Source of the DNA: Chitinophagales bacterium
GTDB lineage: Bacteria > Bacteroidota > Bacteroidia > Chitinophagales > BACL12
Assembly: GCA_020636645.1 (NCBI GenBank)
Contig: JACJXO010000002.1
Span: 99,375 to 163,374, forward strand
Reading direction: 5' to 3'
DNA: 64,000 bases
Positions 1 through 46,002 of this stretch are shown piece by piece (positions within the stretch are counted from its first letter, which is position 1; every line of letters starts with the position of its first letter). A model generated the notes under the pieces. The model searched no databases and was not told the origin of the DNA. It saw nothing but the letters and a program-made list of their open reading frames with translations. Both the position numbers and the translations under genes were made by a program.

Positions 1-1506
1 TGCCGTGGTCGCATTGAGGAAACGGGCAATCATGGCCGATGTGTACTCCGGAAAAGACCGGGCAAGGGCTTCCCAGTTCTGAAAGATGTCACGCCAGTTT
101 CCTTCGTAGTCAAAAAGCTGCTCTCCGGTTTCTGTCTGGGTATGGATGTTGAATTCATTCCACGGGCGGCTCGGATCTCCATGTCTTCTGCTGAAGTACA
201 GAGGCAGGTATTCCATGGCCAGCCGGTAAAGAGAAGGATGGATACGGCAGGCATCCAGCAGATATCGGCGGGGGATGGTTCGTTTTCCGTTGTGCAACCG
301 GGTACGGTACACATGAGCTGCTTCTTTATTATGCTGTTCGAGATACTGCAGAAAATCTGCCGACCGCACCTCATATTGCTCTGTGAACACTCCACCCCTA
401 AGGATATTGAACAGCACGTTTGACTGATGTCTTGCTGTGCTCAGATGATCAGCAGAGTATTGAATACCATCTGCAGCTTGCAGCAGGGTGCGCAGCTGTT
501 CCTGTCCGTTTGCTGTATCATTCAGCACGGTTTGCCAAATATTCTGGTCGTTTCTGATGAGCTGTTGCAGGTTGATGACCTCGCCGGCACCCAGGCCAAT
601 GTCCAGCAGGATCAGCCATTCTTTCGTTTCACCGGGCTGTAATGTGACTCTGGTCTGCTTGATGAATGCACCGCGTTCTGCACGTATATCCTGCTCAGCA
701 TGAACCCGGCCTCCGGTAAGAAAACTGCGAATCTGACGACCGCATAACAGGGTGGTTGCATTTTCCAGCCCAAGGCTCCAGGCCACCGTAGCCCTCAGTG
801 ATTCACTGGGCTCAGGCTTATCAACGATCTGGGCACTCAGAGAAAACACAGCCATTTCCGGATCAGATAACAGCTCATTTTTCCGGTATGCATCCACCAG
901 ATTACTGCGCCAGGTCTGAAGTCTTTCGCCCACATTCGCAGGCAGAATATTCTGTACGCCATCCAGTATATCCAGAGAGATCTCCTGATCACCCCGGTTG
1001 ACCAAAGTGGCTGTTCTGACAATGCCAAAGCGATTGGAAAAAGACCATCCGTATTGAAAGCTGAGTTGGATGTCGTGATTCGTTTCTTCGAACAGGATCC
1101 TGTTTCCCAGTACACTTTTACTGATGCTGCGTTCTGAGTTGTAGCCTGGAAGGATATATCCTGCAAACGGCGACCATACATGCGTGTTGAAAGAAGAGTC
1201 GGTGTACCTGATATGGGTAACACTTCCGGTTACGGGTGCCAGATCTGTGATCTTGTCATCAGTATAGTAGGGAAAGATAGCTTGCTGTGAATTGATGCGT
1301 CCTGCAGTGATGCCGCCATTACTGGACAGGAACATCCAGAGGTTGTTGTCGCTTACCAGGTTCATGAAGAAGGGGCGCATCTCATCATAGTGCCTGATGC
1401 AATAGAATTCTTCACCCTGCACCAGGATCTTTTCCAGATGAGGTTCCGGTGTCCTGCGTGTTTCCTGCAATGTCATGGTTTCATTTCCTGCACTCTGCTC
1501 CTTCAT
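1..1506 (-). CDS. Large conserved hypothetical protein, partial (C-terminus runs off the window start). Co-oriented with the downstream glycoside hydrolase array. A carbohydrate-active role such as a glycoside phosphorylase or GH is possible but unverified.
   Basis: Hand translation of the minus strand gives one uninterrupted frame from the ATG at 1506-1504 (MKEQSAGNETMTLQETRRTPEP...) down to position 1. It is missing from the ORF track because its stop lies off-window. It ends 8 bp before the next minus-strand gene. Confidence 0.5.
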   Translation of the reverse strand, partial: MKEQSAGNETMTLQETRRTPEPHLEKILVQGEEFYCIRHYDEMRPFFMNLVSDNNLWMFLSSNGGITAGRINSQQAIFPYYTDDKITDLAPVTGSVTHIRYTDSSFNTHVWSPFAGYILPGYNSERSISKSVLGNRILFEETNHDIQLSFQYGWSFSNRFGIVRTATLVNRGDQEISLDILDGVQNILPANVGERLQTWRSNLVDAYRKNELLSDPEMAVFSLSAQIVDKPEPSESLRATVAWSLGLENATTLLCGRQIRSFLTGGRVHAEQDIRAERGAFIKQTRVTLQPGETKEWLILLDIGLGAGEVINLQQLIRNDQNIWQTVLNDTANGQEQLRTLLQAADGIQYSADHLSTARHQSNVLFNILRGGVFTEQYEVRSADFLQYLEQHNKEAAHVYRTRLHNGKRTIPRRYLLDACRIHPSLYRLAMEYLPLYFSRRHGDPSRPWNEFNIHTQTETGEQLFDYEGNWRDIFQNWEALARSFPEYTSAMIARFLNATTA

Positions 1507-1514
1507 GGATAGGG

Positions 1515-2810
1515 TCATTTAATATAGAAAGGAATATTGGCATGCGCAGCATGGTCGTGTCCATCAAAAGCATACAGAAACAAACGGTATGCTCCGGGCT
1601 GGTTCGGAACCACCAGTTGTGTGGTTGCCTGATCAGGTGTTGATATCCAGCTGGTAATGACAGGCGGAGTGGTTTCAAAATCACCGCCATCCCCCAGGTC
1701 TGTACTTTCCGGCATAATGATCCATTGGAATTGAAGCTGATCACCATCGGCATCTCTGATGGCAGAAAATGCTTCTGCCGTATCGCCCGGATGCAGAAAA
1801 ATATCACTGCCGGGGGCCATGCCGTTCAGTCTTACAGAATCTATTGCAGGACTGGTGTTTTCAGGCCAGGTGTTGTTCCATATGAAATGCATGGCATCTA
1901 TCGCTGCCGTTTCTTTTCCGTCTTCCATGTAGAGTCCGTACCAGGTGGGTGTGCGTTCCTGTTTTTGTCCCCACAAAAAAATGAATGCACCCAGACAACG
2001 GTCCAGTTCCGGAACGATACCGGTTTGGTAACGTTCCAGTATGTAGTTGGCTTTTACGGTACTGTTGTTCTCTACCGGTGCACCCCAGGAGGTTTCCTGC
2101 ACCTCCCAGTGACCGGTAGCTCCCCATTCAGTTACCAGATATGGTCCGGTCCAGCCGGATTCTCTGATGCGCTGCGGCAGGTTGATGATATCTGCATACA
2201 TCTGGATGCTGAGCAGATCCAGATCAGGCGCACGCTCGCGAATATCTTTGACCAGATCTGCGCTGATACCGGCCAGTGAGGTAGTGGTCAGGTGATTCGG
2301 ATCCACTTCATGTATCATGCGGCTGATATCGTTGACCGCATTCCAGACATTCGGATTGGTAGCACGCAGATTCAGTTCATTGCCTATGCCCCATATCAAC
2401 AGAGCGGGATGATCTTTGAGGGCGATGACCTGCTGCCTGACATCATTCAGCTGTTGCTGCACCACAACGGGGTCATTGTAATCAAACCCATGTCTCTCAC
2501 GGGCGATATCAATACCCATCACCACTTTGATGCCATATGAATGTGCTTCATCCAGGATGTCAATGGCTGACCGCACTCCGTTATCTGTACGCCAGGTGCG
2601 GAAAGTATTTCCTCCGTGTTCTGCCAGTTCAGCAATACTGCCAAATTCCAGACCTGCTCCTTTGATGGTATAGGGTGCCCCGTCCACCAAAAGTTCATAG
2701 CTGTTACCTTCCTGCCTGATGGATACCTGTTCAGGTAAACTCTGGGCATCTGTTTGCCGGCATGACATTAATACAGACAATGAAATAATATATAATGATC
2801 TTGATATCAT
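1515..2810 (-). CDS. Secreted clan GH-A (TIM-barrel) glycoside hydrolase with a C-terminal beta-sandwich domain. Candidate endo-beta-1,3-glucanase with GH158-like architecture. Paralog of 12700..14061.
   Basis: N-terminal signal peptide. WGIGNELNL catalytic-acid-like NE motif. A roughly 300-aa catalytic region followed by a roughly 120-aa C-terminal domain. Clear paralogy with the other GH. Family not verified. Confidence 0.6.
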   Translation of the reverse strand: MISRSLYIISLSVLMSCRQTDAQSLPEQVSIRQEGNSYELLVDGAPYTIKGAGLEFGSIAELAEHGGNTFRTWRTDNGVRSAIDILDEAHSYGIKVVMGIDIARERHGFDYNDPVVVQQQLNDVRQQVIALKDHPALLIWGIGNELNLRATNPNVWNAVNDISRMIHEVDPNHLTTTSLAGISADLVKDIRERAPDLDLLSIQMYADIINLPQRIRESGWTGPYLVTEWGATGHWEVQETSWGAPVENNSTVKANYILERYQTGIVPELDRCLGAFIFLWGQKQERTPTWYGLYMEDGKETAAIDAMHFIWNNTWPENTSPAIDSVRLNGMAPGSDIFLHPGDTAEAFSAIRDADGDQLQFQWIIMPESTDLGDGGDFETTPPVITSWISTPDQATTQLVVPNQPGAYRLFLYAFDGHDHAAHANIPFYIK

Positions 2811-4405
2811 GATCTCACCAGCTCTTTCTCCAGTGCTTCCAGGCTTTTGCCTTTGGTTTCAGGAACATAACGCCAGATGAACAGGAAACCCAGCAAAGCG
2901 AATACACCGTAAATGAAGAAGGTGGTTGCACTGCCCAGCTTTTCCAGCTCCCAGGGAAACACCAGTTGTACAATAAAACTCACAGCACTGTTGATCAGTC
3001 CTACAAAGGAAATAGCCAGCCCGCGAATTCGGTTGGGAAACAATTCAGAGAACAATACCCACATGACCGGTCCAATGGAAATAGCAAAGGATGCCACGAA
3101 GCCCAGAATACCTATCAGGATCAGAACCGGATTGATATGCAGGGCTGCATTGGAAAGTGTACTGCCATGTTCAGAGTAAAATGCAGTACCAAGCTGTTGT
3201 TCTGCTGCTTCCCGAAAAGCCTGTTCATCAGGGTAGGAATGATCATATAAAGCAGAGATGGATGCCTGATCTGCGGTAATGCCTGTTTTGGCAAACGCAG
3301 CTTCTGACAGGGAATATTCTGCAGCACGAAATCCGTAAGACAACAGGAACATGGACACCACAATTCCGGCCACACCCACGATGAGCAGCGGCTTGCGGCC
3401 AAACCTGTCTATGAACAGAATGGCCAGAACAGTGAATACCAGATTGGTTATACCTACCAGAATGGCCTGGACGAAAGAAGCATCTGTGCCGATGCCTGAT
3501 TGTTCAAATATCATGGGTGCATAAAAGAATACGGAATTGATACCTGTGATCTGTTGCAGTACAGCTACTACTATGCCGATGGTGATGACCAGGCGCAATG
3601 CCGGTTTGAACAGGTCAGCTACGCCTGCCTGTTTGCTGTGTTCTTTTTTACTTTCTTCTTCGATGCTCTGACGGATCTCTGCCATTTCGCGATCTGCTGT
3701 TTCGGCATTGGAGAATCGGGTCATGATCTTTTTGGCTTCTTCGAATCGACCCTTCAGGATAAGCCACCGCGGACTTTTCGGTACAAGAAATAGTCCGAAG
3801 AAGTACAGCACAGCAGGCAATGTTTCCAACCCGAGCATCCAGCGCCAGGGCTCGGTATCAATATGTGCCTTTTTTACCCATGCAGCATCAGACTGGCTGT
3901 AACGCAGAATCAGGTAATTGGTGAAGAATGCCAGGGAAATTCCGATCACGATATTGAGCTGGTTGAATGAGACCATGCGGCCACGCATTTCGGGCGGACT
4001 GATCTCTGCAATGTACATAGGTGCAATAATGAGCGAAGCACCCACACCAAAACCACCAATCATGCGGAAGATGACCAGCGACACAAAGTCAGGAGCCAGG
4101 GCAGAGCCGATGGCCGATATCGCATATAAAATAGCAGCATAGGTAAGCACCTTCTTCCTGCCGATGCGGTTACTCAAAGGTCCGCTTACCATCATGGCCA
4201 GCGTTGAGGTAAGGGTAAGTGAACTGACAGACCATCCTAGCTGGATCTTGGTCAGTTCAAATTTCGTTTCGATGAAACCCACCACACCGGAAATGACCGA
4301 TGCGTCGAATCCCATGAGCAGTCCGCCAAGGGCTACGATGAGGGCTATCAGCATCAGGCGATAGTTGCCTGTGCTGATGGGTTGTTCGTTCACAGGTGCT
4401 GCCAT
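2807..4405 (-). CDS. MFS sugar porter family transporter (sugar:H+ symporter) with an extended central cytoplasmic loop.
   Basis: Motifs GRKKVL, PKSPRWL and PETKGKSLE typical of sugar-porter MFS, about 12 TM helices. Its stop overlaps the start of the downstream GH by 4 bp. Confidence 0.85.
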   Translation of the reverse strand: MAAPVNEQPISTGNYRLMLIALIVALGGLLMGFDASVISGVVGFIETKFELTKIQLGWSVSSLTLTSTLAMMVSGPLSNRIGRKKVLTYAAILYAISAIGSALAPDFVSLVIFRMIGGFGVGASLIIAPMYIAEISPPEMRGRMVSFNQLNIVIGISLAFFTNYLILRYSQSDAAWVKKAHIDTEPWRWMLGLETLPAVLYFFGLFLVPKSPRWLILKGRFEEAKKIMTRFSNAETADREMAEIRQSIEEESKKEHSKQAGVADLFKPALRLVITIGIVVAVLQQITGINSVFFYAPMIFEQSGIGTDASFVQAILVGITNLVFTVLAILFIDRFGRKPLLIVGVAGIVVSMFLLSYGFRAAEYSLSEAAFAKTGITADQASISALYDHSYPDEQAFREAAEQQLGTAFYSEHGSTLSNAALHINPVLILIGILGFVASFAISIGPVMWVLFSELFPNRIRGLAISFVGLINSAVSFIVQLVFPWELEKLGSATTFFIYGVFALLGFLFIWRYVPETKGKSLEALEKELVRS

Positions 4406-4408
4406 AAG

Positions 4409-4453
4409 TAGCTTTTTGTAAAAATAACTATAAGTAGGAATTTTCCTACTTAT
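4409..4453. promoter_or_regulatory. Exact copy of the GTAGCTTTTTGTAAAAAT 18-mer (a half-site only), immediately followed by a 24-bp perfect palindrome ATAAGTAGGAA-TT-TTCCTACTTAT. It lies upstream of the MFS gene, in the gap after GH30.
   Basis: The 18-mer is identical to 14801-14818. The palindrome at 4430-4453 has 11-bp arms and a 2-nt centre. Located 25-48 bp upstream of the MFS start codon. Confidence 0.45.
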
Positions 4454-4464
4454 TGCACAAAAAA

Positions 4465-5892
4465 CTACCGGAGTATGCAGGTTTGAATGGCATGGGCGGG
4501 AATGGCCATTTTAGCAGATTCCTGACCGGTTTGAAGCTGGTAGGAGATCGGCAGATCGCTTTTGTTCATGACCACTACGGTAAGGCTGCCATCCGGATGC
4601 AGGTAAGCGGTGGTAAGCAGATCACTGTGATTGGTACCGGCTGCAACCCGTACTGCACCGGGTCTTATAAAACGGGAAAAATGCCCCAGGTAGTAATAGG
4701 CCGGGGTCAGCAGCAAGGTGTCTGATGCTACATCTGCGTGGATCGGAGCAAAGCAGTAATTGCCCACATGGTTAGGGCCGCCATACATATTGAGCATCAG
4801 GTTCCAGTCGGTCCAGGCAGTGGTACCATGGTTGAAGTCTTCTATGACAGCTTCGCCATATCGTTCGGCATGTGCCCAGCTACCCAGATATTCGCGTCTG
4901 AACAGCTCATTACATCCTTCAGTAAAGACCAATGCTTTATCGGAGAATGAGCTGTTCACCAGGCCCACATTCTCAAACATGGGCTCACCACCGGCCCAGG
5001 TCTCATACCAGTGAAAACCAACCCCCCACACATATGCAGAAGCTTCCGGATCGTTCAGGATGGTAGCAGCTCTTTGGAACAGCAGGTCACGGTTGTGATC
5101 CCACACGATCAGCTTCTTATCATCCATACCTGCTGCATGTAATGCCGGCCCCAGATGATCACGAACAAAATCACGTTCTTCTTCGGCGATATAGATACAG
5201 GATTCCCAGCGTTGCACAGCCATGGGTTCATTTTGTACCGTCAGACCCCATACCGGAAAGCCGGCTGCTTCATATTCCTGAATGAAACGTATATAATAAT
5301 TGGCCCAGGCAGTACGGTATTCAGGCAACAAACTTCCGCCGTGCAGCATATCCTTGTTCGTCTTCATGAAGGCCGGCGGACTCCAGGGGCTTGCGTACAG
5401 CAACAGGTCCTTACCTGCAACAGACTGTATATGCTGCAGCAGGGGAAAACGATAGGTCCGGTCATGATCAATGGAAAAGGTCTGCAGAGTACTGTCGCCT
5501 TCGGTAATGTAAGTATAACTTTCGGGCGAGAAATCACAGCTGTGTACAGGCACTCTGATCAGGTTGTATCCAAGCCCGTTTTTTTGATCAAAGCAGGCTT
5601 GTATGAATGCAGCACGTGTACTTTCACTGAGTGAATCATAGACCACAGCAACAGCGTCTGTTACAGCACCGCCCATACCGGTATGTACCTGAAAACGATG
5701 AGTAGTATCTGCAAAGACCACTCTTTCTGATTCGAGTGGCTGGACAGATCCTGCAGTGGGTATATCATCCAGCTGCTGCAACAGATGTTCGTTGCCCCTG
5801 GCGGTTTCATAGACCTGCCAGGTGTTCTTGTGCTGGGCGTGTACCTGAAGCACACACAGCCATACTACTGCAAGCAGGAAAAATTTTCTCAT
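4465..5892 (-). CDS. Glycoside hydrolase family 30 (glucosylceramidase-like), candidate beta-1,6-glucanase. Secreted.
   Basis: Signal peptide. GH30 hallmark ASPWSPPAFMK, plus LIRVPVHSCDFS. About 475 aa, typical GH30 length. Confidence 0.8.
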   Translation of the reverse strand: MRKFFLLAVVWLCVLQVHAQHKNTWQVYETARGNEHLLQQLDDIPTAGSVQPLESERVVFADTTHRFQVHTGMGGAVTDAVAVVYDSLSESTRAAFIQACFDQKNGLGYNLIRVPVHSCDFSPESYTYITEGDSTLQTFSIDHDRTYRFPLLQHIQSVAGKDLLLYASPWSPPAFMKTNKDMLHGGSLLPEYRTAWANYYIRFIQEYEAAGFPVWGLTVQNEPMAVQRWESCIYIAEEERDFVRDHLGPALHAAGMDDKKLIVWDHNRDLLFQRAATILNDPEASAYVWGVGFHWYETWAGGEPMFENVGLVNSSFSDKALVFTEGCNELFRREYLGSWAHAERYGEAVIEDFNHGTTAWTDWNLMLNMYGGPNHVGNYCFAPIHADVASDTLLLTPAYYYLGHFSRFIRPGAVRVAAGTNHSDLLTTAYLHPDGSLTVVVMNKSDLPISYQLQTGQESAKMAIPAHAIQTCILR

Positions 5893-6719
5893 TCTGCCTG
5901 ATAGCTGAAGGAACGTATCACGACCTCATGCTCCAGGCCATCAGACGGACCGGCACTTATCCAGGTCATGATCCAGAAATTGATACGTGCATTGGTGGTT
6001 TCGCCGGGTGCAGGAATGATGATGGGGTCTGAAGAGATACCGTTCTCATTCTTGACGCGAGGGGGATTGTCCAGATCAAAAAACCAGGAAGCAATGAGGT
6101 TATCAGGGTTGATACCTTCGCCGGAATAACTGTTCCAGACGATGATGCTATCGGTCCAAAGAAAAGAATGCGTACTCACACCTACCAGACTTCCGTCAGG
6201 TGTGTCAGCGTCGTAGGTACGTTCCGGATAATACGGTCCAAAGTTGAGGGGTTGAACAGAATAATGCAGTGTCTCTTCGGCCTCTGCATTTCCCCATTTG
6301 GCAAATTCAATATCGATCTCGCTGTTGCCATCGGTTTGAAAGGTATTGTTATCCCAGGTGAATAATCCCAATACAATGTTCTCCGGAATATTCTGAAGAT
6401 CTCCCTGCACCACCCAGGTATAAGTTCCGTAACCCATGGTATCACGGCTCACTACTTCAGAAGAATACCAGCGGCCGTCGTGCTCAGAAATGTGCATATG
6501 CAGATAACCATTTTCATCTACCCAGACATCTTCGTAACGACCGGAGAAATAGTTCGGGCCAGGACCCATGACACTGTTTTCAAAGATCTTGACATCCCAG
6601 AGGTAGCCTGAGAAATTCACTTCGTCGCCCTGACGTCCCAGCACATCTTCCGGATCAGATTGCGAACAGGACAGACTTAAGGAGATCAGGAACAGACCTG
6701 CTATATGTGTTGCTTTCAT
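5889..6719 (-). CDS. Glycoside hydrolase family 16 lipoprotein (laminarinase-type endo-beta-1,3(4)-glucanase).
   Basis: Lipoprotein signal (LSLSC). GH16 catalytic motif E-I-D-I-E (NSEIDIEFAKWGN). 276 aa. Confidence 0.8.
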   Translation of the reverse strand: MKATHIAGLFLISLSLSCSQSDPEDVLGRQGDEVNFSGYLWDVKIFENSVMGPGPNYFSGRYEDVWVDENGYLHMHISEHDGRWYSSEVVSRDTMGYGTYTWVVQGDLQNIPENIVLGLFTWDNNTFQTDGNSEIDIEFAKWGNAEAEETLHYSVQPLNFGPYYPERTYDADTPDGSLVGVSTHSFLWTDSIIVWNSYSGEGINPDNLIASWFFDLDNPPRVKNENGISSDPIIIPAPGETTNARINFWIMTWISAGPSDGLEHEVVIRSFSYQAE

Positions 6720-7915
6720 TTTGCTGATAGTTCTGAAGTCACATGAATGCTTCCCCAGGTAGAGGGGTTGCGTTCAAATGCCGGTTTGTCATCGCCGTTC
6801 CAACGATACCTGACCACCAGTTCTGATGACTGACGGTCCACTACGGCCACATCCAGCAGATAGTTTTCATCTTGTTCCCATTTGCTGATACCCAGCTCAC
6901 GGAATGACAGTTCTGCCGTTAAACGGTAACCGCTGGCGGTTTTTTCAAAAAGCACCGGACGTGCAAGGGTTTGCCGGTTCACGTCATCCCACACCAATCC
7001 GTTCTTCATGGCAGGCAGGAACAGCAACCGGTCGCTCAGAAACAGTTGTTTTCTGCTGTTATCCAGGTCCGGATTGGAAGAAAACGCCAGGATGAGTCCA
7101 TCGTTTTCCATTTTGGGCCATTCTTCAGAAGAGGTGCCAACATGTATGGCATCTTCTACTACCGCTGTCAGCACGATACTGCTGTCTGTCAAAGCCATCT
7201 GAACACCGGCACCGGGTTGGTCGAGCAGGGTCCGGCTACTACCGTTGTAACTGATATCAACTGAGCGATTGTTGTGCTCACCCAGGTCCACTACACGTAC
7301 ATCATCAATGTACACAACTCCATCTGCTTCCAGCTGGATGATGAGTTGTTTGACCATGCTGAGGTCTGCATGGAACATTTTCGTATCAAATGCTTTGAGG
7401 GGTACCTGTACCCTTGTCCATTGGCCGGTTATTTCCTGGTTGTCTATGAATTCAGGGAACACACCCGCCCATGCCTGTGCCCCGTTATAGTCTTCCAGTG
7501 CCATGGCCCAGGGCAGTCCTTTCAGGTTTCCGGAAGAGCTGCGTGCCATGAATTGTATAGCACCCCGGTCAACGATCTGACTCAGATTCTTGGAGGCCCA
7601 GCCATCCCATCCAAAACCGATTCCAAGCCAGCTGCAACCGGCCTGCTTATTCCATTGAAGCAACAGTGAACCGTTGCCATTGTCATTCAGATCAAATGCA
7701 TTGGTTACCTGCAGACAAGCTGCGGTATCAGGAGAGAACCAGAACTCATTGGTGATGTAATCGTTCCAGATATCAACGCTGTAGAAATTGCCAACATGAG
7801 ACAGTGTGTCTGCGGAAGCGGGCTGTTCATATACAGACATGGTCCGGAAGGAACAGGCGTGCAGGCTGCATACAAGCGGCAAAGTCAGCAACCAGATTCG
7901 TTCGTGATGGCTCAT
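6716..7915 (-). CDS. Secreted two-domain beta-sandwich protein, putative carbohydrate-binding or surface glycan-binding protein.
   Basis: Signal peptide. Trp/Gly-rich CBM-like N-terminal half (WLGIGFGWDGWASKN) and a second beta-rich domain. Embedded in the GH array with overlapping stop and start codons. Confidence 0.45.
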   Translation of the reverse strand: MSHHERIWLLTLPLVCSLHACSFRTMSVYEQPASADTLSHVGNFYSVDIWNDYITNEFWFSPDTAACLQVTNAFDLNDNGNGSLLLQWNKQAGCSWLGIGFGWDGWASKNLSQIVDRGAIQFMARSSSGNLKGLPWAMALEDYNGAQAWAGVFPEFIDNQEITGQWTRVQVPLKAFDTKMFHADLSMVKQLIIQLEADGVVYIDDVRVVDLGEHNNRSVDISYNGSSRTLLDQPGAGVQMALTDSSIVLTAVVEDAIHVGTSSEEWPKMENDGLILAFSSNPDLDNSRKQLFLSDRLLFLPAMKNGLVWDDVNRQTLARPVLFEKTASGYRLTAELSFRELGISKWEQDENYLLDVAVVDRQSSELVVRYRWNGDDKPAFERNPSTWGSIHVTSELSAK

Positions 7916-8916
7916 GGTTTCAGCGGACCGTTTTCGGTGAAGATGATGAGATCCATGAGTGCCTGCGCATAACCGGAAACCGGATTGGCCAGCATCAGTA
8001 TGCTCACCTGTATCAGTTTATCCGGTTCGTTCAGACCATTTCCAATTGGATCGGCGGGAGCGCCATTCACCAGCGTGACGAGATCAGCATAGCGTGCAGA
8101 GATCAGTTGCCAACCATCCTGATCATTCAATGCTACTTCCAGTGAGAACATATCTTCTTCTCCATCAGTATATACACCATCGCCATTATCATCTTCCCGG
8201 AACTGGAACAGCACCAGTGCATTGCTCAGGTCGGGCTGTTTGGACAGCAACACATTGAAATAGATATTATCCGGATTGGTTGCCAGGTCAAAGGTTGGAG
8301 CACCATAAGCACTTCCCGGAATATCGATCAGACCAATGAGCCAGTCCCAGCCCACTTCTCCTCCCATATCGTAGTAGGATCCGCCCTGTGCGGCATTTTC
8401 ATCGGTACGGATCACAAAGCTCATGTCAGCACCTGACTGAACGAAGCTTCCCCATCCAGGGTTCCAGCCGGCCTCAAAATCTTCCAGCAGAAGGCCTTCC
8501 ACAGGTCGGGCGGTCTCTACAGAAACGGAAGTTTCATATACTTCTTCTTCTGTTTCAAAAGTGAGTGATACGTCACATGCTTCTGGCCTGAACATGGGCA
8601 ACTGGGTGGTGGTGCCATCCCAGGTAGCGTTTGATGCATCCAGGGTCCTGGAAAATCCGGTTATTGTCTTCACAGCACCGGATTCCTGTCCGGTGATGGT
8701 CAGGGTCCAGTTTATGTTCTTCGAGAACTCTGCGGTGAAAACGGCTTTTTCACCAGCGGCGAAATCGATCTCTGAATCATTTACGGCAAGTGCCTGCAAC
8801 AGGTTGAATTCGCCATAGAGATCATTAAGATCCGGACCGTCAAACAGATCAGTTTCACGGGTACATCCTGCCAGAAGGAGGGTGCTTATTGCGGTTATAA
8901 GTGCTATTCTTTTCAT
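7912..8916 (-). CDS. Surface lipoprotein, SusE/F-like surface glycan-binding protein candidate.
   Basis: Lipobox MKRIALITAISTLLLAGC. CBM-like acidic Trp-rich domain (LLLEDFEAGWNPGWGSF...). Position in the locus. Confidence 0.45.
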   Translation of the reverse strand: MKRIALITAISTLLLAGCTRETDLFDGPDLNDLYGEFNLLQALAVNDSEIDFAAGEKAVFTAEFSKNINWTLTITGQESGAVKTITGFSRTLDASNATWDGTTTQLPMFRPEACDVSLTFETEEEVYETSVSVETARPVEGLLLEDFEAGWNPGWGSFVQSGADMSFVIRTDENAAQGGSYYDMGGEVGWDWLIGLIDIPGSAYGAPTFDLATNPDNIYFNVLLSKQPDLSNALVLFQFREDDNGDGVYTDGEEDMFSLEVALNDQDGWQLISARYADLVTLVNGAPADPIGNGLNEPDKLIQVSILMLANPVSGYAQALMDLIIFTENGPLKP

Positions 8917-8918
8917 AT

Positions 8919-10649
8919 TCAGAATTCCATTGAGAATAAGAGTGCTAACTGAGAAACGCCATAAGCAGGTAATGTGCCAATGACATTGCTAGTGCCAAAG
9001 TTGTTGTACTGCCCCATGACATACACCTGATCGCTGAAACGGTAACGGATACCTGCGCCACCCATCCACTGAGATCCATCTGCATTGAATTCATTAAAGT
9101 TGACAATATCTCCGTAGGCATCTGTCTGGTTCATGAATTCAAAACCACTGTATGAATGATATAACAATCCGGCTACCAGATCTGTTTTCTCCAGGATCTC
9201 TATTTCCAGTCCGGTGCCAGCTATCATCGTGCTGAGATCAACAGATGGAACGCCTTCCTGATCTGCCGGCCTGGAGGTGTTATCCATCCGTAAAGAAACG
9301 GAAGCCTTCAATGCTCTCGTTTTGTTTTTACTATAGCTTTCCTGCTCCCAGTTCAGACGTGCTTCAAGCCTGTTGAATTGCCTGTAACTGGTGGTTCCCT
9401 GACCCCTTACCTCAGTAAGCATAAGTCCATTCAGGTTGGCACTCAGCCGGTCATCCAGCAGTTTGCAGGTAGCGTTTGCCTGCAGCCCCTGTCTGTTGGG
9501 TGTGGCTGCACCGTAAGGAGTGATGTTATCATATCGTGGATCATAGACCATCAGACCTTCGCTGAGTTGCAGGTTGTACAATGATGATTCACGGATCAGG
9601 TCCAGCATGGTCAGAGAACGCACCAGCTGGTTATTGGTAAGACGATCAAAGGCTGCAGGATAGGCGTCAAACAACACACGCTTGGTCTGTGCACCCGGAC
9701 TTCTGAAATCCGGTCCTACCCATTTGTACCCTGCAGAGATGCTCAGTTTACCCCCGGCATCCTGCAGTTGAAACATCAGGTCAGAAAAGACATCAGACCG
9801 TTCAGGTGCCAGCGGATCTTCCAGGTAGCGGGTTTGCGACATACCTGCTTCCAGATCGCCGGAAAGGGTCCAGTTGCCAAAGCTTTTTTCGCTGCTCAAT
9901 GATGCGGTGTACACAGGGTTCTGCAACAGAATATCATTGCGTGAAGTACCCTTCAGGTCATACAGACTGGCGTAGGTAAATGCACCTGACAGATACGCTC
10001 CCTGCACCCATTCTATACTGGCTGAGCTGAACAGGCGGTCGCTTACCGTGGCAAAATTGGACGGCATGACCCTGCTGGTGAAGAGGTGCATATCTGCCGA
10101 TTCGATGACAGACCGGAAGTTGAATCCGAAGTCAACCGCGGCGCCCTGCTGCCTCCAGCTGTGATCCAGATTTTGGAAATTATCGTACATGACCTGATCG
10201 CTCAGATGTGCAAGCAGAACAGGCGACAGGTCATATAGTTCCTGATCGTTGTTGTAGAGGGTGTATTTGGTCAACTGATAATTGATATCGCCCAGCTGGT
10301 AGCGCACAACTTTGTTCAGCACACCTTTAAGGTAAAGCTGGCGTATATCGAATGTGACACCCGCACCCCAGAATCCACCAAAATCATTGCGGATGCGCAC
10401 CATTCCCTGGATCTCAAGATCTTCAGACGGACGGATATTCACACCGATATCAGCCAGCGCATGTCCGCTGTTCTGCCGGGGTGGAGTAACCGTGTCGGGC
10501 TCTGCCAGTTCCTGTTCCAGCACATCAGCAAAGTATATGGAACGGGCGGCACCATTCACGGTGAACTTGGGAGTTGTCTGTTGTGCCTGCACTGCGGTTG
10601 AAAGGCAGAGCAGCGTACAGAAGATTCCTGTGGTCAATTGTTTATGCAC
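8919..10649 (-). CDS. Outer-membrane beta-barrel protein (porin-like), candidate oligosaccharide channel. GTG start.
   Basis: Signal peptide ending AVQAQQ. Alternating-hydrophobicity beta-strand pattern throughout. C-terminal ...LLFSMEF with terminal Phe. 576 aa, too small for SusC. Its start overlaps the upstream stop by 1 nt (TAGTG). Confidence 0.55.
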   Translation of the reverse strand: MHKQLTTGIFCTLLCLSTAVQAQQTTPKFTVNGAARSIYFADVLEQELAEPDTVTPPRQNSGHALADIGVNIRPSEDLEIQGMVRIRNDFGGFWGAGVTFDIRQLYLKGVLNKVVRYQLGDINYQLTKYTLYNNDQELYDLSPVLLAHLSDQVMYDNFQNLDHSWRQQGAAVDFGFNFRSVIESADMHLFTSRVMPSNFATVSDRLFSSASIEWVQGAYLSGAFTYASLYDLKGTSRNDILLQNPVYTASLSSEKSFGNWTLSGDLEAGMSQTRYLEDPLAPERSDVFSDLMFQLQDAGGKLSISAGYKWVGPDFRSPGAQTKRVLFDAYPAAFDRLTNNQLVRSLTMLDLIRESSLYNLQLSEGLMVYDPRYDNITPYGAATPNRQGLQANATCKLLDDRLSANLNGLMLTEVRGQGTTSYRQFNRLEARLNWEQESYSKNKTRALKASVSLRMDNTSRPADQEGVPSVDLSTMIAGTGLEIEILEKTDLVAGLLYHSYSGFEFMNQTDAYGDIVNFNEFNADGSQWMGGAGIRYRFSDQVYVMGQYNNFGTSNVIGTLPAYGVSQLALLFSMEF

Positions 10650-12628
10650 TAGAAAAATATTTTAATTTCTACCATAGTTTCCTGGCCCTGAAATGCATCA
10701 TCGGCAAAACTGGCATCTTCAAATGCGAACCATCGGTGACGCAGATACAGGCGGGCATTAAATCCCAGATCGATATCCAGGCCGGCGCCATATCCTGTAC
10801 CGGTCTGATTTCGGGGTCTTCTGCTTTCTTCATCAATATCTGTCAGATAGTTGCCCAGGGTTCTTTCATAGCCTGCATAGCCAGAAATCAGTATCCGGTC
10901 GCCCAGTTCCAGATAGGCTTCCAGTTCATTGGCATATTGCCTGATGTAAGCTTCTTCGCTGGTAACCGTAAAGGCTGAGAACGATCGTTGTACTGAAGAA
11001 TAGTATCCCAGATAGAACAGGTAAATATTCTTGCCGAATACTTTGGAATGGTATTTTACCTGCGGTTCAAATACGCTGAAGAACTTCTTGTTGATGACCA
11101 CTCCGGAACTGTCGTCAAAGAGGTTTACGGTCTCATAGACATCGCGGTATATGACCGAATAACGCTGGTAAGGCCCCACTTCTGCAGGAAACAGCCAGCG
11201 CCACATGCGGCTTCTGGTCAGTTGATTGACAGGATGTCCATAAGTGATGACCGAAGAAATGGGTTCCAGTTCTGCCTGTGCAGCCAGACCGATATTGAAT
11301 TTAAAATCACCCAGGGTGTATTCCATATTCAGATCTGCTCCCTGTCGGTTATTAGACATCTGACCGATGCGCAGCATAGAACTGCCGAATGGCTGCAATA
11401 CCGCAGTGCTGCCTATTGTTCCGGCAGGTAATGCTGCAGGATTGTACTCTCGGATAGCAGTATTGAGAAAAATGGAATTGTCATTGATGACCTTCGGACT
11501 GATATAGAAATAGTGCAGGCTCCATCGGGGCAATGTCTTCTTCGCAGGTGTGGTCAGGGTAGCGGATATCAGCCCTCCGTTGCCGGCATCTTGCACCGGA
11601 CTGAAGTAATTTCCCAGTCCACCTTCGGCCAGCAATGAAAATCCTTTCATATGCACCATCCACTCCAGGGTGGTGAGGTGAAATCCTACCTTTTCTTCCG
11701 ACAGACTATCGGCCCAGGTGGTAGCATGCAAACTGTTGATGCTGATGTACTGTCCGGGTCCTGTTTTCTTTTGCAGTTTTCCCCCATAAGTATAACTTGG
11801 CCAGGGACTGAAGCCTCCGTTGAATTCAGATTTACCCACCAGGGCAGTAAAGGAAAGGTCTTTGGGAAGGCCGTTTCCATCCAGTATCAAACCCTTGAAT
11901 GCCCGGTTTCCCCAACGGGTATCCTGGTTGATACCACCTTCGTTGAAATAGGTCTCGTAGCGGGCCGGCAAAGAAGCTCCTGCCGGATCCCATGGATTGC
12001 GTTCAAACAGTGTAAAGCGATTATATCCCCTGAAAGAAGCCATGGTCAGGTCAGACAAACGCACCCAGTGAATGCCGCCTGCCCGCAAGGTAAATGTGCC
12101 GGAGCGGGTTTCCTGGATACCGGTAAAGTTCAGCCCGAGATTCAGGTTCATCTGTCCGCCAAGGCGTGTTCCGCTTAATGGATCCTGAAAAGAGGGACGA
12201 AGTGAATCCGGCACTTGTGCCCCATAGGTGGTGCCGATGGCACCATTGAGAAACTGAAAGGCAAACACATCAAATGAAAATGAAGTATGCGGAGCAGGTT
12301 TCCCGGAGATGGTGAGTTGCAGATTTGGAAGCTGGCTGTCATCACCAATGAAGAGACTGGCTGGCAATACAGTATCATTAATAACAGGATTCAGCACATA
12401 GGGAAGGTCATGTGTGGTATAGGTGGCAAAGAAGCGGTAAAATCCTGACACAGAGATCTTTCTGAGCGGCGATGGTTCTTCTGCAGGACGGATGCCCAAT
12501 GCAGTTTCCGTACTGTCTTCTACCTGTGCTACAGCTGTGTTGGCAGCCATCATACAGATCAGTATCAGCCACATGATAAAGCTGCCTGATACAAACATTT
12601 TCAGATTAGACGTACGGGTTCCTGACAT
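10649..12628 (-). CDS. Outer-membrane beta-barrel protein (porin-like), second copy. Not a TonB-dependent transporter.
   Basis: Probable true start at the internal Met (MFVSGSFIMWLILICMMAANTAVAQ, about 12598). Beta-strand periodicity. C-terminal VEIKIFF. No TonB box or plug. Confidence 0.55.
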   Translation of the reverse strand: MSGTRTSNLKMFVSGSFIMWLILICMMAANTAVAQVEDSTETALGIRPAEEPSPLRKISVSGFYRFFATYTTHDLPYVLNPVINDTVLPASLFIGDDSQLPNLQLTISGKPAPHTSFSFDVFAFQFLNGAIGTTYGAQVPDSLRPSFQDPLSGTRLGGQMNLNLGLNFTGIQETRSGTFTLRAGGIHWVRLSDLTMASFRGYNRFTLFERNPWDPAGASLPARYETYFNEGGINQDTRWGNRAFKGLILDGNGLPKDLSFTALVGKSEFNGGFSPWPSYTYGGKLQKKTGPGQYISINSLHATTWADSLSEEKVGFHLTTLEWMVHMKGFSLLAEGGLGNYFSPVQDAGNGGLISATLTTPAKKTLPRWSLHYFYISPKVINDNSIFLNTAIREYNPAALPAGTIGSTAVLQPFGSSMLRIGQMSNNRQGADLNMEYTLGDFKFNIGLAAQAELEPISSVITYGHPVNQLTRSRMWRWLFPAEVGPYQRYSVIYRDVYETVNLFDDSSGVVINKKFFSVFEPQVKYHSKVFGKNIYLFYLGYYSSVQRSFSAFTVTSEEAYIRQYANELEAYLELGDRILISGYAGYERTLGNYLTDIDEESRRPRNQTGTGYGAGLDIDLGFNARLYLRHRWFAFEDASFADDAFQGQETMVEIKIFF

Positions 12629-12666
12629 ACCGATCAGTTCTGTTGGAATGATAAATGTACTACTTT

Positions 12667-12681
12667 TTGTACTTTTTACAA
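12667..12681. promoter_or_regulatory. Second TTGTA-N5-TACAA palindrome (CTTTTTGTACTTTTTACAA) in the 71-bp gap between the GH at 12700 and the outer-membrane protein at 12628.
   Basis: Same half-sites and spacing as the site at 14809-14823. One of only two gaps wider than 4 bp in the 11-gene array. Confidence 0.45.
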
Positions 12682-12699
12682 TTAGTACCTGAATTTTTT

Positions 12700-14061
12700 T
12701 TAGAGCGACTGTTCCCGCAGCTGGATTGCCTTCTGGTATTGCTCACCTGAAGGATCGGGCAGGACATAAAAAGGTATGTTCAGGTATGCGTAATGATTGG
12801 CTGCATCATAGACATACAGGAACAGGCGGTAGGCACCTTCACTTTGCGGAGCTCGGAAACTTACCTGCTGGCTGTCTTTTCGCATGCCCAGACCTTTCAC
12901 GGAGGGCGGACGGGATTCTGCATCGCCACCGGCTTTTATATCCTGGCTTTCACTCACCACTTCCCAGATGAATTTCATCTGATCGCCGTCTGCATCTGTC
13001 ACAGTTGCCAGTGCCTGGCAGGGTTGCCCTGGTTGCAGAATGATGTCTGCACCTTTTGACTGTCCGTTTAGCGAAGCGGAAGCAATGGCAGGTGCCCTGT
13101 TGGCAGGTTCCTTTCCTGTCCAGGCTCTGATCAGCTCATCTATGGCTTCAGACTGGCGGCCGTCTTCAGAGAGCAGGCCATACCAGGTAGAGGTGGTTTC
13201 CTGTTTTTGTCCCCACAGGAAGACATAAGACCCCACGCATTTAACCCTGTCGCCGGCTATATAATTATTATATCTTGCTTTGTAGGAAGCGGCTTTTTCA
13301 CTGCTGCTCTGCTCTACAGGAGCATTCCATTTTGTCTTGCTGACCTCCCAGTGTCCGTTGGGCCCCCATTCACTGATGATGTATGGCCCTTGCCAGCCGG
13401 CAGACCGGATGGTATCAGGCACAATTCCAATGTCTCCGTATGTGTTTATACCGTATATATCAATAGAAGGAGCGTTGGCCATGATGAGTCTCACTTCAGC
13501 AGGATCCAGTCCTGCCGTAACGGTAGAAGTAGGATGGTTGGGATCAATCTGATGGATCATGGCAGCTATATCTTCAATGGCGTTCCAGACCTTTGTATTG
13601 CTGTAGAACAGATCCACTTCATTACCAACACCCCACAGCAAGAGGGCGGGGTGGTCTTTATAGGTCTTTACCACTTCTGTGAAATAGTCCAGCTGAGCCT
13701 TCACTTTGGATTCATTGTCATAGTCAAACCCATGTCTTTCATGCTGAACCCATAGGCCAAGCATGACCGTCATACCCAGGCGTTGTGCTTCATCAAGTAA
13801 TTCACCGGCATCATCCGGACTCCAGGTCCGGAAACTGTTGGCACCGCATGCTGCTGCCAGATCCAGGTGGTCTGTACCTCCAACACCGTTTATATAGTAT
13901 GGCTCACCATTGCGGTATAACTGCCACTGACCTTCGCTGTTCATGCCTACCGTAACAGGTATTGCCTGACCAGAAACAAGCACTGGGAGGAACAATAGTG
14001 AAGCCAGCAACCAGGACAAACGGCTATGATGCGATATGCGTTTCATGAATGGTATGATCAT
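12700..14061 (-). CDS. Secreted clan GH-A glycoside hydrolase with a C-terminal beta-sandwich (GH158-like architecture). Paralog of 1515..2810.
   Basis: Signal peptide. HERHGFDYD and WGVGNEVDL motifs shared with the paralog. C-terminal domain similarity (DADGDQ..F.WEVV). Overlaps the regulator's stop by 38 bp. Confidence 0.6.
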   Translation of the reverse strand: MIIPFMKRISHHSRLSWLLASLLFLPVLVSGQAIPVTVGMNSEGQWQLYRNGEPYYINGVGGTDHLDLAAACGANSFRTWSPDDAGELLDEAQRLGMTVMLGLWVQHERHGFDYDNESKVKAQLDYFTEVVKTYKDHPALLLWGVGNEVDLFYSNTKVWNAIEDIAAMIHQIDPNHPTSTVTAGLDPAEVRLIMANAPSIDIYGINTYGDIGIVPDTIRSAGWQGPYIISEWGPNGHWEVSKTKWNAPVEQSSSEKAASYKARYNNYIAGDRVKCVGSYVFLWGQKQETTSTWYGLLSEDGRQSEAIDELIRAWTGKEPANRAPAIASASLNGQSKGADIILQPGQPCQALATVTDADGDQMKFIWEVVSESQDIKAGGDAESRPPSVKGLGMRKDSQQVSFRAPQSEGAYRLFLYVYDAANHYAYLNIPFYVLPDPSGEQYQKAIQLREQSL

Positions 14062-14740
14062 ACGTGAATAATCGGGCAGGTCGATGCGATACGTCTTCCT
14101 GGAACAGCTCTGTTTCTACCAGGTAAGGCATCTCATGAAGCTTTTTTCTGAAATTCCCTTTGTCATAAGAACGGTTCAGTACTACCTCAAAGAACTGCTG
14201 CAATTCTGAAAGCGTGAAGAACTGAGGCAGCACAGCTTCCCACAGCGGCCTGCGCCGGGTGCTGTGCTGCGTGCGGTGTCTTAGTTTATCCAGGGCGTAG
14301 CGAATGATGTCTGCATGGTCAAAGGTCAGTTCCGGAATGTCATCAAGCGAAAACCATTGAGCTTTATTGGCCCAGTGTGACGGCTGCGGCTGCACATCCA
14401 GTTTGTTGACAATTGCGTAATATCCAATGGTTACCACCCGTCTTCCCGGCACCCTGTCAGCTTCTCCGAAGGCGTGTGCCTGCTGCAGAGGAATATGAGC
14501 AAGTCCGGTCAGGTCTCGCAGTACACGATGGGCTGCTTCATCAATGTCTTCCTGAGGATAGACAAGATCTCCCGGAAGTGCCCAGGACCCCTGAAGCTCT
14601 TCAGCACCTATTTCTATGAGCATGACCTCCAGTGACTGTACCCCGTAGCCAAACACTACACAGTCAATGGAAACCTCCATCATGCGGTCATTGTCCTGAG
14701 GCTTCTTCCTCCTGTTGGCATTATCGAAGTTGTTTTTCAT
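14024..14740 (-). CDS. NUDIX-domain transcriptional regulator of the NrtR family (AraR-like sugar-responsive type), with a C-terminal winged-helix domain.
   Basis: N-terminal NUDIX-like fold (GSWALPGDLVYPQEDIDEAAHRVLRDLTGL) and a C-terminal wHTH-like region. It is the first gene of the minus-strand array, divergent from the repeat-protein genes. An alternative start at MMEVSID is possible. Confidence 0.65.
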   Translation of the reverse strand: MKNNFDNANRRKKPQDNDRMMEVSIDCVVFGYGVQSLEVMLIEIGAEELQGSWALPGDLVYPQEDIDEAAHRVLRDLTGLAHIPLQQAHAFGEADRVPGRRVVTIGYYAIVNKLDVQPQPSHWANKAQWFSLDDIPELTFDHADIIRYALDKLRHRTQHSTRRRPLWEAVLPQFFTLSELQQFFEVVLNRSYDKGNFRKKLHEMPYLVETELFQEDVSHRPARLFTYDHTIHETHIAS

Positions 14741-14800: not shown

Positions 14801-14823
14801 GTAGCTTTTTGTAAAAATTACAA
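14801..14823. promoter_or_regulatory. Candidate NrtR-type operator in the divergent promoter: 18-mer GTAGCTTTTTGTAAAAAT containing the palindrome TTTGTAA-AAA-TTACAAA (core GT-N7-AC).
   Basis: Perfect inverted repeat with 7-bp arms, between the regulator start (14740) and repeat-protein gene 1 (14911). The same 18-mer recurs at 4409-4426. Confidence 0.5.
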
Positions 14824-16506: not shown

Positions 16507-16515
16507 ATTTCATCC

Positions 16516-16541
16516 GGGGAGCTGACAATCAGCTCCCCTTT
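16516..16541 (+). terminator. Intrinsic terminator after repeat-protein gene 1 (GGGGAGCTG-acaat-CAGCTCCCC-TTT).
   Basis: 9-bp GC-rich stem and 5-nt loop, 10 bp after the stop codon. Short T run. Confidence 0.55.
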
Positions 16542-16554
16542 AAACACTACCCAA

Positions 16555-19014: not shown

Positions 19015-19019
19015 GTAAA

Positions 19020-19049
19020 TTCGGGGGTGCCTGACACCCCCGAATTTTT
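19020..19049 (+). terminator. Intrinsic terminator after gene 2 (TTCGGGGGTG-cctga-CACCCCCGAA-TTTTT).
   Basis: 10-bp stem, 5-nt loop, T5 tail. Confidence 0.7.
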
Positions 19050-19061
19050 AAACACATATAT

Positions 19062-20051: not shown

Positions 20052-20069
20052 TAACGTTCAGTTTGTTTG

Positions 20070-20097
20070 AAAGACGGCCGGAAGGCCGTCTTTGTTT
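20070..20097 (+). terminator. Intrinsic terminator after gene 3 (AAGACGGCC-ggaa-GGCCGTCTT-TGTTT).
   Basis: 9-bp stem, 4-nt loop, T-rich tail, about 20 bp past the stop. Confidence 0.65.
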
Positions 20098-20443
20098 GGC
20101 GACTATATACCTAATGGGAACAGCTTTGTAAGGCGTTAATATACAGCAATTTACACAGGTAATTAGCTGACCTGATTAGGTTTGTCTAAGAAATTTTTGA
20201 GAATAGCCTAAGTAATTTGTTCGGCTAAGACTGAATTTGAGGCGATTTCAGTTAATGGGGGTTAACTGATTGCGAGCTGTGAAACAATAGTTAACAAGTT
20301 CTAAATACAATTATTCTTGCATTATTGAAACAATCTAGTTTATTTGCAGTTAACTTTGTAAAACTAAGTGGACTTGGGGTCACTCTAAAACTGCCTTAAG
20401 TGGACCGCATGGAATTAATGGAAGAATTTATTGAGGGGCGAAG

Positions 20444-20515
20444 ACCGCATGGTGAGAATCGAACCCACATCTCCAGATTAGCAGTCTGGTGTTCTATCCG
20501 TTGAACTACATGCAG
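20444..20515 (-). tRNA. 72-nt class-I (short variable arm) tRNA whose anticodon loop CUGCUAA reads anticodon GCU. The isotype is anomalous: GCU is Ser, but there is no long variable arm and the acceptor pair is C1:G72.
   Basis: Hand fold of the reverse complement. Acceptor CTGCATG/CATGCGG (one G-U pair). D arm GTTC-AACGGATA-GAAC. Anticodon arm CCAGA-CTGCTAA-TCTGG. Variable loop AGAT. T arm GTGGG-TTCGATT-CTCAC. Discriminator T. Confidence 0.7.
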
Positions 20516-20913: not shown

Positions 20914-20952
20914 ATTTCTTTGGTCGTTCTGCCATTATCTCCAACACTTGAT

Positions 20953-22600: not shown

Positions 22601-22629
22601 ATCTATTCCCAATAAATACCTAAATTACA

Positions 22630-45980: not shown

Positions 45981-46002
45981 TTTGCTTGATTTATAAGAAT
46001 AT

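Follow-up and report, generated by a model that had tools for sequence, protein, structure and literature searches.

Gene content of the locus

The DNA analysed here is a 64-kb stretch (hereafter the window) from a metagenome-assembled genome (MAG) of an uncultured Chitinophagales bacterium. At its left end lies a putative glucan operon, in which two predicted outer-membrane barrels, OMP-A and OMP-B, and a lipoprotein are found in place of a SusC/SusD pair. From position 1 to 14740 the minus strand is filled by 11 co-directional genes, and the open reading frame (ORF) map bears out the compact layout described in the first-pass annotation: five junctions overlap by 4 bp, one by 1 bp and one by 38 bp, one is a gap of 2 bp, and just two gaps are wider than 4 bp (4406-4464, 59 bp, and 12629-12699, 71 bp). 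The leftmost gene continues past the window edge. OMP-B is identical to H6548_03205, a hypothetical protein of a Chitinophagales bacterium MAG, and many metagenome contigs carry the same stretch as the window. The features of the locus are the following.

1..1518, minus strand: GH149 β-1,3-glucan phosphorylase, N-terminal 506 aa, cytoplasmic (no signal peptide); NCBIfam NF058639, PDB 6hq6
1515..2810, minus strand: GH158 paralogue b, 431 aa, lipoprotein signal LMSC; 44% identity to paralogue a
2807..4405, minus strand: inner-membrane sugar porter of the major facilitator superfamily (MFS), 532 aa; Pfam Sugar_tr, E = 1.8e-110
4465..5892, minus strand: GH30, 475 aa, signal peptide of the signal peptidase I (SPI) type; Pfam Glyco_hydro_30 (E = 1.4e-73) and Glyco_hydro_30C
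5889..6719, minus strand: GH16-like lipoprotein, 276 aa, acidic N-terminus CSQSDPED; invariant ExDxE motif
6716..7915, minus strand: CBM30/CBM9-like lipoprotein (CBM, carbohydrate-binding module), 399 aa, fourth cassette gene; Pfam CBM30, E = 7.4e-10
7912..8916, minus strand: surface lipoprotein, 334 aa (LAGC), third member of the outer-membrane core, CHU_1278-like by cassette homology
8919..10649, minus strand: OMP-B, 576 aa, predicted 22-stranded plug-less barrel, CHU_1277-like
10649..12628, minus strand: OMP-A, 659 aa, predicted ~22-stranded plug-less barrel, CHU_1276-like
12667..12681: palindrome TTGTACTTTTTACAA (TTGTA-N5-TACAA), upstream of OMP-A, candidate operator
12700..14061, minus strand: GH158 paralogue a, 453 aa (called gene 448 aa), SPI signal peptide; phmmer against the PDB
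14024..14740, minus strand: NrtR/AraR-family Nudix-related regulator, 238 aa; Pfam NrtR_WHD, AraR_C, NUDIX
14809..14823: second palindrome copy TTGTAAAAATTACAA, between the divergently transcribed regulator and T9SS CBM genes
14911..20051, plus strand: three divergent proteins (531, 819 and 329 aa) sorted by type IX secretion (T9SS), with CBM48/X25-like repeats; domain matches

The first-pass annotation had read into this region two paralogous clan GH-A hydrolases bracketing the locus, a GH30, a laminarinase-type GH16 and a sugar porter. The GH30 and the MFS porter hold by their Pfam matches and the paralogues turn out to be GH158, while the GH16 finds no family-model match. The outermost genes are corrected: the leftmost to a GH149 phosphorylase, missed earlier, and the rightmost to an NrtR-type regulator.

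We assign both GH-A paralogues to GH158. In phmmer searches of the PDB, paralogue a matches the GH158 structure 9oro (8.3e-102) and BuGH158 (6pal, 4e-79). The clan GH-A motifs are present in both: the N-E acid/base in VGNEVD, or GIGNELN in paralogue b, and the nucleophile in SEWG, or TEWG in b. Paralogue b also gives a weak match to the Pfam GH2_C TIM model. The catalytic residues of the family were defined previously (Dejean 2020, PMC7157763). No lipobox is found in 57 of the 63 orthologues of paralogue a, whose signal peptides are of the SPI type; this protein is predicted to be a periplasmic endo-β-1,3-glucanase.

The leftmost gene is a member of GH149 by its match to NF058639 (GH149_beta_1_3), with E = 1.9e-180 and 602 bits over model positions 6-486 of 1134; the score lies under the NCBIfam cut-off of 1150 because the window holds only 506 of the 1136 aa. 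The complete protein, on the same contig (L001:11305-14715), scores 1071.8 bits against the β-1,3-oligosaccharide phosphorylase 6hq6. Among solved structures, the GH30 comes nearest to SrfJ (2wnw, 4e-82) and to human glucosylceramidase, with 5ngk farther away (7.7e-45); a periplasmic β-glucosidase or β-1,6 debranching enzyme is predicted.

The 276-aa lipoprotein gave no match in Pfam, NCBIfam or the PDB, and a profile of 29 homologues matched no GH16 structure. Four of these 29 match the Pfam GH16 model (PF00722) weakly, with a best E of 0.0087. The residues E134-I-D136-I-E138 are invariant in the family, and hhalign places this ExDxE on the EIDIME of a true GH16, at a probability below 4% and hence without statistical support. 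Formal membership in GH16 was rejected for want of a family-model match; the protein is at most GH16-like, very divergent, and a candidate surface endo-glucanase.

Orthologues of the 276-aa protein begin with CKQSDPED, and those of the 334-aa protein with CK[VT]DDEF; both starts resemble the surface-export signal of Bacteroidota lipoproteins. The 334-aa protein belongs to no Pfam, NCBIfam or PDB family, with a weak CBM11 match in three of 30 family members. The 399-aa protein, whose orthologues also contain CBM9_1, is not homologous to the proteins encoded fourth in the cassettes for cellulose, xylan or chitin discussed below, and appears to be a substrate-specific protein similar to surface glycan-binding proteins (SGBPs).

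The three divergent T9SS proteins match Por_Secre_tail, X25_BaPul_like, AMPK1_CBM and CBM_48. Each is built from two to five repeats of a module of ~110 aa, in which Cys pairs are conserved (NGxWDGWCGGC…YEYKFA.D.W). Where related loci have enough flank, homologues almost always lie divergent beside the regulator. We consider them candidate cell-surface glucan-capture proteins.

Their matches to starch-type models are one reason to ask whether the operon targets another glucan, such as an α-glucan or a mixed-linkage glucan; the other is the ExDxE motif of the 276-aa protein, which is of the lichenase type, without the laminarinase bulge. The enzymes make such a target quite improbable. GH158 is so far a strictly β-1,3-specific endo-glucanase family (PMC7157763), GH149 is a β-1,3-glucan phosphorylase, laminarin loci usually have GH30 and GH3 as partners (PMC5827456), and the locus has no GH13, GH31, GH65 or GH97. 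A β-1,3-glucan is thus the preferred substrate, and the ~110-aa module, although it matches starch-type models (X25, CBM48), may be an unclassified β-glucan-binding module.

The regulator matches NrtR_WHD (8e-19), AraR_C (2.7e-9) and NUDIX (1.8e-8) in Pfam, and scores 112 bits against NCBIfam NF050029, under its cut-off of 400. As in the NrtR/AraR class, it combines a Nudix domain and a C-terminal winged helix with a palindrome near the regulated genes. The window has two copies of TTGTA-N5-TACAA where 0.08 would be expected, and both sit in the two promoter-capable non-coding gaps of the locus, before the regulator and before OMP-A. Across 81 related loci, 87 copies were counted where ~2.5 would be expected; 57 of them lie upstream of the regulator, GH158 or OMP-A at a distance of at most 300 bp. 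The palindrome is likely the operator of the NrtR/AraR-type regulator. In two relatives with full flanks (L012 and L052, ~5900-8000), tblastn finds neither the regulator nor the GH158 upstream of OMP-A; the palindrome still precedes OMP-A.

Two predicted barrels and no SusC/SusD

OMP-A and OMP-B both carry SPI signal peptides and end in a Phe that is invariant among 40 homologues of OMP-B and 44 of OMP-A. The first-pass annotation had proposed that they are β-barrels, and AlphaFold2 models, built from the corresponding 40- and 44-sequence alignments, are indeed barrels and not other folds. The OMP-B model reaches a pLDDT of 76.7 and a pTM of 0.75, the OMP-A model 73.2 and 0.73. Read from the DSSP strings with the N-terminus set in the periplasm, rather than from coordinates, both barrels would have ~22 strands, periplasmic turns of 2-8 residues and a few long extracellular loops. 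Two long and conserved loops are predicted in OMP-B, L3 (~49 aa) and L7 (~74 aa); the latter contains 23 of the 84 invariant residues. L3 and L7 are also the loops that constrict the pores of Occ channels in OprD structures.

Strand 1 begins only ~6 residues past the signal peptide in OMP-B and ~24 in OMP-A: with such short mature N-termini, neither the plug of a TonB-dependent transporter (TBDT; ~150 aa) nor a TonB box can fit. Searches of Pfam, NCBIfam and the PDB with every member of both families returned nothing beyond a sub-threshold match to OMP_b-brl. The proteins also differ from classical 16-18-stranded trimeric porins and glycoporins, by their ~22 predicted strands and by matching no porin Pfam family. 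T9SS barrels of the PorV/PorP/SprF type, BamA/TamA and exopolysaccharide exporters were considered and rejected on misfitting sizes, lack of any family match and the catabolic nature of the loci.

No homology between OMP-A and OMP-B is detectable by hhalign. They share a (T/N)NRQG motif (residues 384-388 in OMP-B and 426-430 in OMP-A) at the same topological position, the end of loop 7 and start of predicted strand 14, and may be very old paralogues from an ancient duplication. The stop codon of OMP-A and the start codon of OMP-B share 1 nt in the window, and the two also overlap in the relatives' loci that were read, which suggests translational coupling.

The absence of a SusC/SusD pair, also claimed at first pass, extends beyond the window. 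No ORF of the window matches TonB_dep_Rec, Plug or SusD. In the 10 kb past its left edge, the remainder of the GH149 is joined by a T9SS-tailed peptidyl-arginine deiminase, a PIF1 helicase and a CarboxypepD_reg protein, and no SusC, SusD or other TBDT is encoded; a pair lying just beyond the window on this side is ruled out by this gene content. Likewise, neither SusD/RagB nor SusC was found in the Pfam-annotated contexts of related cassettes. Compared with a canonical SusC/SusD polysaccharide utilization locus (PUL), the locus thus lacks both a SusC-like TBDT, which combines an N-terminal plug and a TonB box with a 22-strand barrel, and an adjacent TPR-rich, SusD-like lipoprotein; it retains the co-localised carbohydrate-active enzymes (CAZymes): two GH158, the GH30, the GH16-like protein and the GH149 form one operon for one glycan, with shared palindromes.

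A portable module and its probable kinship with that of Cytophaga hutchinsonii

The same barrel pair, sought elsewhere as the first-pass annotation had advised, recurs in many CAZyme contexts of Bacteroidota. OMP-B is encoded in at least 180 species, in a scan of one genome per species. MAGs make up nearly all of the carriers, from Chitinophagales and from Flavobacteriales (under such labels as Crocinitomicaceae, Cryomorphaceae and Salibacteraceae), the one isolate being Phaeocystidibacter luteus LMG 25704. By tblastn with the window proteins, the order regulator, GH158, OMP-A, OMP-B, lipoprotein, CBM protein, usually a GH3, and 276-aa protein is kept in ~80 independent genomes, with a T9SS CBM-repeat protein divergent at the head wherever the flank allows; as OMP-B identity in these genomes is 37-58%, the arrangement is not due to chance. 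The MFS porter, GH30 and GH149 are added in a subset of loci, including that of P. luteus. At the P. luteus locus (L085; NZ_WBVO01000011.1:65662-87305), a true Pfam GH16 is present beside the 276-aa GH16-like protein, and GH158 is separated from OMP-A by an inserted sodium:solute symporter gene (L085:6341-7975).

A profile search among 1.8 billion representatives yielded 585 OMP-B relatives, counted as representatives at 50% identity. In the distant ones the gene order is unchanged, from an OMP-A-like protein (~680 aa) through OMP-B and a 334-aa lipoprotein homologue to a fourth protein that varies. By hhalign or BLASTP, genes one to three were verified as homologous; the fourth gene is not conserved. 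For the lipoprotein, hhalign gives 99.5% with the third gene of the chitin cassette and 98.4% with that of the xylan cassette, here over the N-terminal 200 aa. The triad of OMP-A, OMP-B and lipoprotein occurs in three orders, Flavobacteriales, Chitinophagales and Cytophagales, and in habitats that range from soil, wastewater and fresh water to the open ocean. The following enzymes accompany it.

GH10 and GH3: L089
GH18 and glucosamine-6-phosphate deaminases (NagB): L088
GH18, MFS and HGSNAT: L094
GH3: Cytophagales, including the complete genome CP133159.1
GH9: L100, L103
GH97 and a T9SS GH13: L112, L133
GH5 with GH31: L119
Sulfatases flanking triad and GH158: a large marine (Tara Oceans) lineage

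The marine lineage (L117-L175; for example L127:2471-16073) was found by a metagenome scan with an alignment of the Cytophagales subset. It has the order OMP-A (631 aa), OMP-B (585 aa), lipoprotein, CBM protein and GH158. On these marine contigs, from Tara Oceans and elsewhere, several S1-type sulfatases stand on both sides of the cassette and hint at a sulfated β-glucan-like substrate. Cytophagales-type cassettes contain an extra conserved protein of ~697 aa, without a Pfam match, just upstream of OMP-A (L092:5443-7536, L098, L099, L114 and a contig of JGI 3300071358), sometimes followed by a sodium:solute symporter.

Taken together, the comparisons suggest a portable module, in which the barrels and a docking lipoprotein are kept and the CAZymes and the fourth, binding protein are swapped. 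They also bear on the simplest alternative, namely that OMP-A and OMP-B are general-purpose porins or housekeeping barrels that ended up within a CAZyme cluster by accident. Neither barrel matches a characterised family and the fold matches are to generic barrels only, as one might then expect. Nonetheless we find this reading scarcely credible: it is contradicted by the synteny, with the pair fixed at one position in the ~80 genomes; the translationally coupled pair travels with different CAZyme sets; the operon's own candidate operator precedes it; and the family, with its 585 representatives, is small for a housekeeping porin.

One version of this module is already known from the genetics of the cellulose degrader C. 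hutchinsonii (Zhou 2016, Ji 2014, Zhang 2025; PMC12016534). Its chu_1276-chu_1280 genes encode two outer-membrane proteins, two bimodular β-sandwich proteins and an endoglucanase, and were described as an 'atypical PUL' reported in only two further cellulolytic species, three cellulolytic Cytophagales in all (PMC12016534). There, growth on cellulose depends on chu_1276, chu_1277 and chu_1279. CHU_1276, a predicted barrel with TBDT-like matches, is reported to be involved in glucose uptake, and CHU_1277 is needed for the use of cellulose and cello-oligosaccharides; in CHU_1279, a binding protein of 375 aa, the key residues are Y253, F256 and F343; and the two SusC/D pairs of the organism are dispensable for cellulose use (PMC12016534).

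We judged the homology to CHU_1276-1278 through two metagenomic proxy loci. In soil metagenome locus L100, the OMP-A, OMP-B and 380-aa triad is followed by a 375-aa protein with Y253, F256 and F343, then by a GH9. As the residues coincide with those of CHU_1279, a match whose chance we estimate at ~1e-4 from typical residue frequencies, L100 and L103 serve as CHU-type proxies, both being assigned by a fourth protein of 375/376 aa with these three residues and by the GH9 after it. BLASTP against L103 gives 27% identity for OMP-A (E = 1e-59), 33% for OMP-B (E = 3e-76) and, over its full length, 26% for the 334-aa lipoprotein (L103:9792-10934, E = 1e-19). The CBM30/CBM9 family and the CHU_1279-like 375-aa protein of L100 align at an hhalign probability of 9%. 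By way of these proxies, the triad appears homologous to the CHU_1276/CHU_1277/CHU_1278-type module.

The two systems are alike in their plan: two outer-membrane proteins, a β-sandwich protein, a CBM-like binding protein and then one or more GHs, all co-directional, the first three proteins being homologous (through L103) and CHU_1276 also being a predicted β-barrel. As far as the cited account describes it, a periplasmic endo-glucanase is common to both. They differ in the enzymes, a GH9 endoglucanase there against GH158, GH16-like, GH30 and GH149 proteins here; in the fourth protein, the bimodular cellulose-binding CHU_1279 there and an unrelated CBM30/CBM9 protein here; and in control, by a sigma factor of the extracytoplasmic function (ECF) class there and by an NrtR/AraR-type regulator with a palindromic operator here. 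In addition, the MFS porter and the phosphorylase are part of the operon in the window.

Proposed route of glucan uptake

We think it likely that the region is an operon for a β-1,3-glucan (laminarin or chrysolaminarin), with OMP-A, OMP-B and the lipoprotein as its importer in place of SusC/SusD. The non-canonical outer-membrane route claimed at first pass is supported by the barrel models, the lack of SusC/D and the synteny; import itself is what we infer.

The glucan would be captured at the surface by the T9SS-anchored CBM-repeat proteins together with the 334-aa and CBM30/CBM9 lipoproteins, and cleaved there by the GH16-like lipoprotein with its acidic N-terminus. The resulting oligosaccharides would pass the outer membrane through OMP-A and OMP-B without energy from TonB, the long conserved extracellular loops probably lining or gating the lumen. 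The SPI-type signal of the GH158 endo-glucanase, which would place it in the periplasm, implies that sizeable oligosaccharides enter this compartment; GH158 and GH30 would shorten and debranch them there. The MFS porter would then carry laminari-oligosaccharides into the cytoplasm, where GH149 would phosphorolyse them to glucose-1-phosphate. Both promoters would be controlled by the NrtR/AraR-type regulator through its TTGTA-N5-TACAA operators.

Several points weigh against this scheme. Transport through the barrels is putative, and their models are of only moderate confidence (pLDDT 73-77). A plug-less 22-stranded barrel must be occluded, and the lipoprotein could equally fill it, as in LptD/LptE or MtrAB; the barrels would then be a display scaffold and not a channel. 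The homology to CHU_1276-1278 is drawn from the metagenomic proxies L100 and L103, the catalytic activity of the 276-aa protein is putative, and a distal SusC/D pair may exist elsewhere in the source genome.

A rival reading gives the same proteins a different function: an assembly or anchoring platform, similar to LptD/LptE, Slam or MtrAB, that exports and holds lipoproteins and enzymes, with import left to a distal SusC/D pair or to general porins. The third-gene lipoprotein is conserved alongside the barrels in all variants, and its N-terminal ~200 residues are conserved across substrate types, as expected of a docking domain. In C. hutchinsonii, loss of chu_1276/1277 also lowers the cell-associated β-glucosidase activity, which fits a scaffold, and distal SusC/D pairs serving a 'non-canonical PUL' are documented (PMC13543919). 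Against a platform stands the report that CHU_1276 acts in glucose uptake at low concentration (Zhou 2016, as cited in PMC12016534). Moreover, C. hutchinsonii can dispense with its two SusC/D pairs for cellulose use, and no such pair lies near any Pfam-annotated cassette read. Finally, a periplasmic endo-glucanase, an MFS porter and a cytoplasmic phosphorylase need oligosaccharide entry, for which the locus encodes no other candidate. On balance, we hold the platform to be fairly unlikely and retain import through the barrels.

The closest system with the same target is the 1,3GUL of Bacteroides uniformis (Dejean 2020, PMC7157763). It follows the same logic of a GH158, a GH16-type enzyme and an exo-glucosidase; the latter is a GH3, a family present in most relatives of our locus, whereas the window has a GH30. 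Two SGBPs complete the likeness. Unlike our locus, 1,3GUL has a SusC-like TBDT, a SusD-like SGBP-A and a hybrid two-component sensor, and its GHs are described as acting at the cell surface (PMC7157763), while GH158 here is mostly of the SPI (periplasmic) type. The cytoplasmic GH149 phosphorylase is an addition of our locus.

Proteobacterial diffusion channels (OprD/Occ, LamB, ChiP and CymA) are, as predicted here, TonB-independent barrels encoded with catabolic genes. They have 14-18 strands, against ~22 here, and show no sequence relationship to OMP-A or OMP-B; moreover, the present system always pairs two different barrels, adds a dedicated lipoprotein and belongs to Bacteroidota.

The GH149 'CAZyme clusters lacking susCD' (Kuhaudomlarp 2018, PMC5827456) resemble our locus in joining GH149 with GH16 or GH17, GH30_1 or GH3, and a sugar transporter. 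The absence of susCD from some of these Bacteroidetes clusters was explicitly noted; their outer-membrane component was left unidentified there, whereas a conserved barrel pair is found here.

In the literature we searched, no porin or TonB-independent route appears in Bacteroidota PULs, nor GH158 with porins. A September 2026 review of glycoside transporters gives TBDTs as the sole outer-membrane class among its four, names a porin only for maltodextrin uptake in E. coli and does not mention the two-barrel system (PMC13543919). New, relative to the C. hutchinsonii module, are the β-1,3-glucan variant, with another regulator, fourth protein and enzymes, and, in the literature searched, how widely the module ranges, over at least six enzyme contexts and three orders, from soil to open ocean.

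Could the triad be a second, TonB-independent architecture of outer-membrane glycan uptake in Bacteroidota, parallel to SusC/SusD, its CAZymes swapped for β-1,3-glucan, cellulose, xylan, chitin, α-glucan or sulfated glycans? In our judgement this generalisation falls somewhat short of probable. PUL prediction in Bacteroidota depends on SusC/SusD pairs, and loci without them go under the name of 'CAZyme clusters', for which no entry route is known. If the generalisation is true, the barrel pair would be the genomic marker of a class of PUL invisible to SusCD-based predictors such as PULDB, and would explain how 'CAZyme clusters without susCD' import their substrates. It offers a testable answer both to the uptake of cellulose products by C. 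hutchinsonii and to the working of SusCD-less clusters. The module occurs in abundant freshwater and marine lineages, and is here tied to laminarin, among the largest aquatic carbon fluxes. The cultured P. luteus LMG 25704 and a soluble substrate allow testing, and the regulator-operator pair allows prediction of the regulon.

Two further regions of the window deserve mention. A tRNA-Ser(GCT) gene at 20443-20515 (minus strand) lies exactly where the G+C content falls from ~49% to 35-39% for ~6 kb (20000-26000). This stretch, which also encodes a T9SS-sorted protein of 845 aa (23476-26013), has the look of an island of foreign composition, flanked by the tRNA gene and lying beside the glucan locus. 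At 44472-47931 (minus strand), two adjacent genes encode Peptidase_S74 (endosialidase chaperone) and glycine-rich domains, typical of phage tail-fibre-like or cell-surface fibre proteins.

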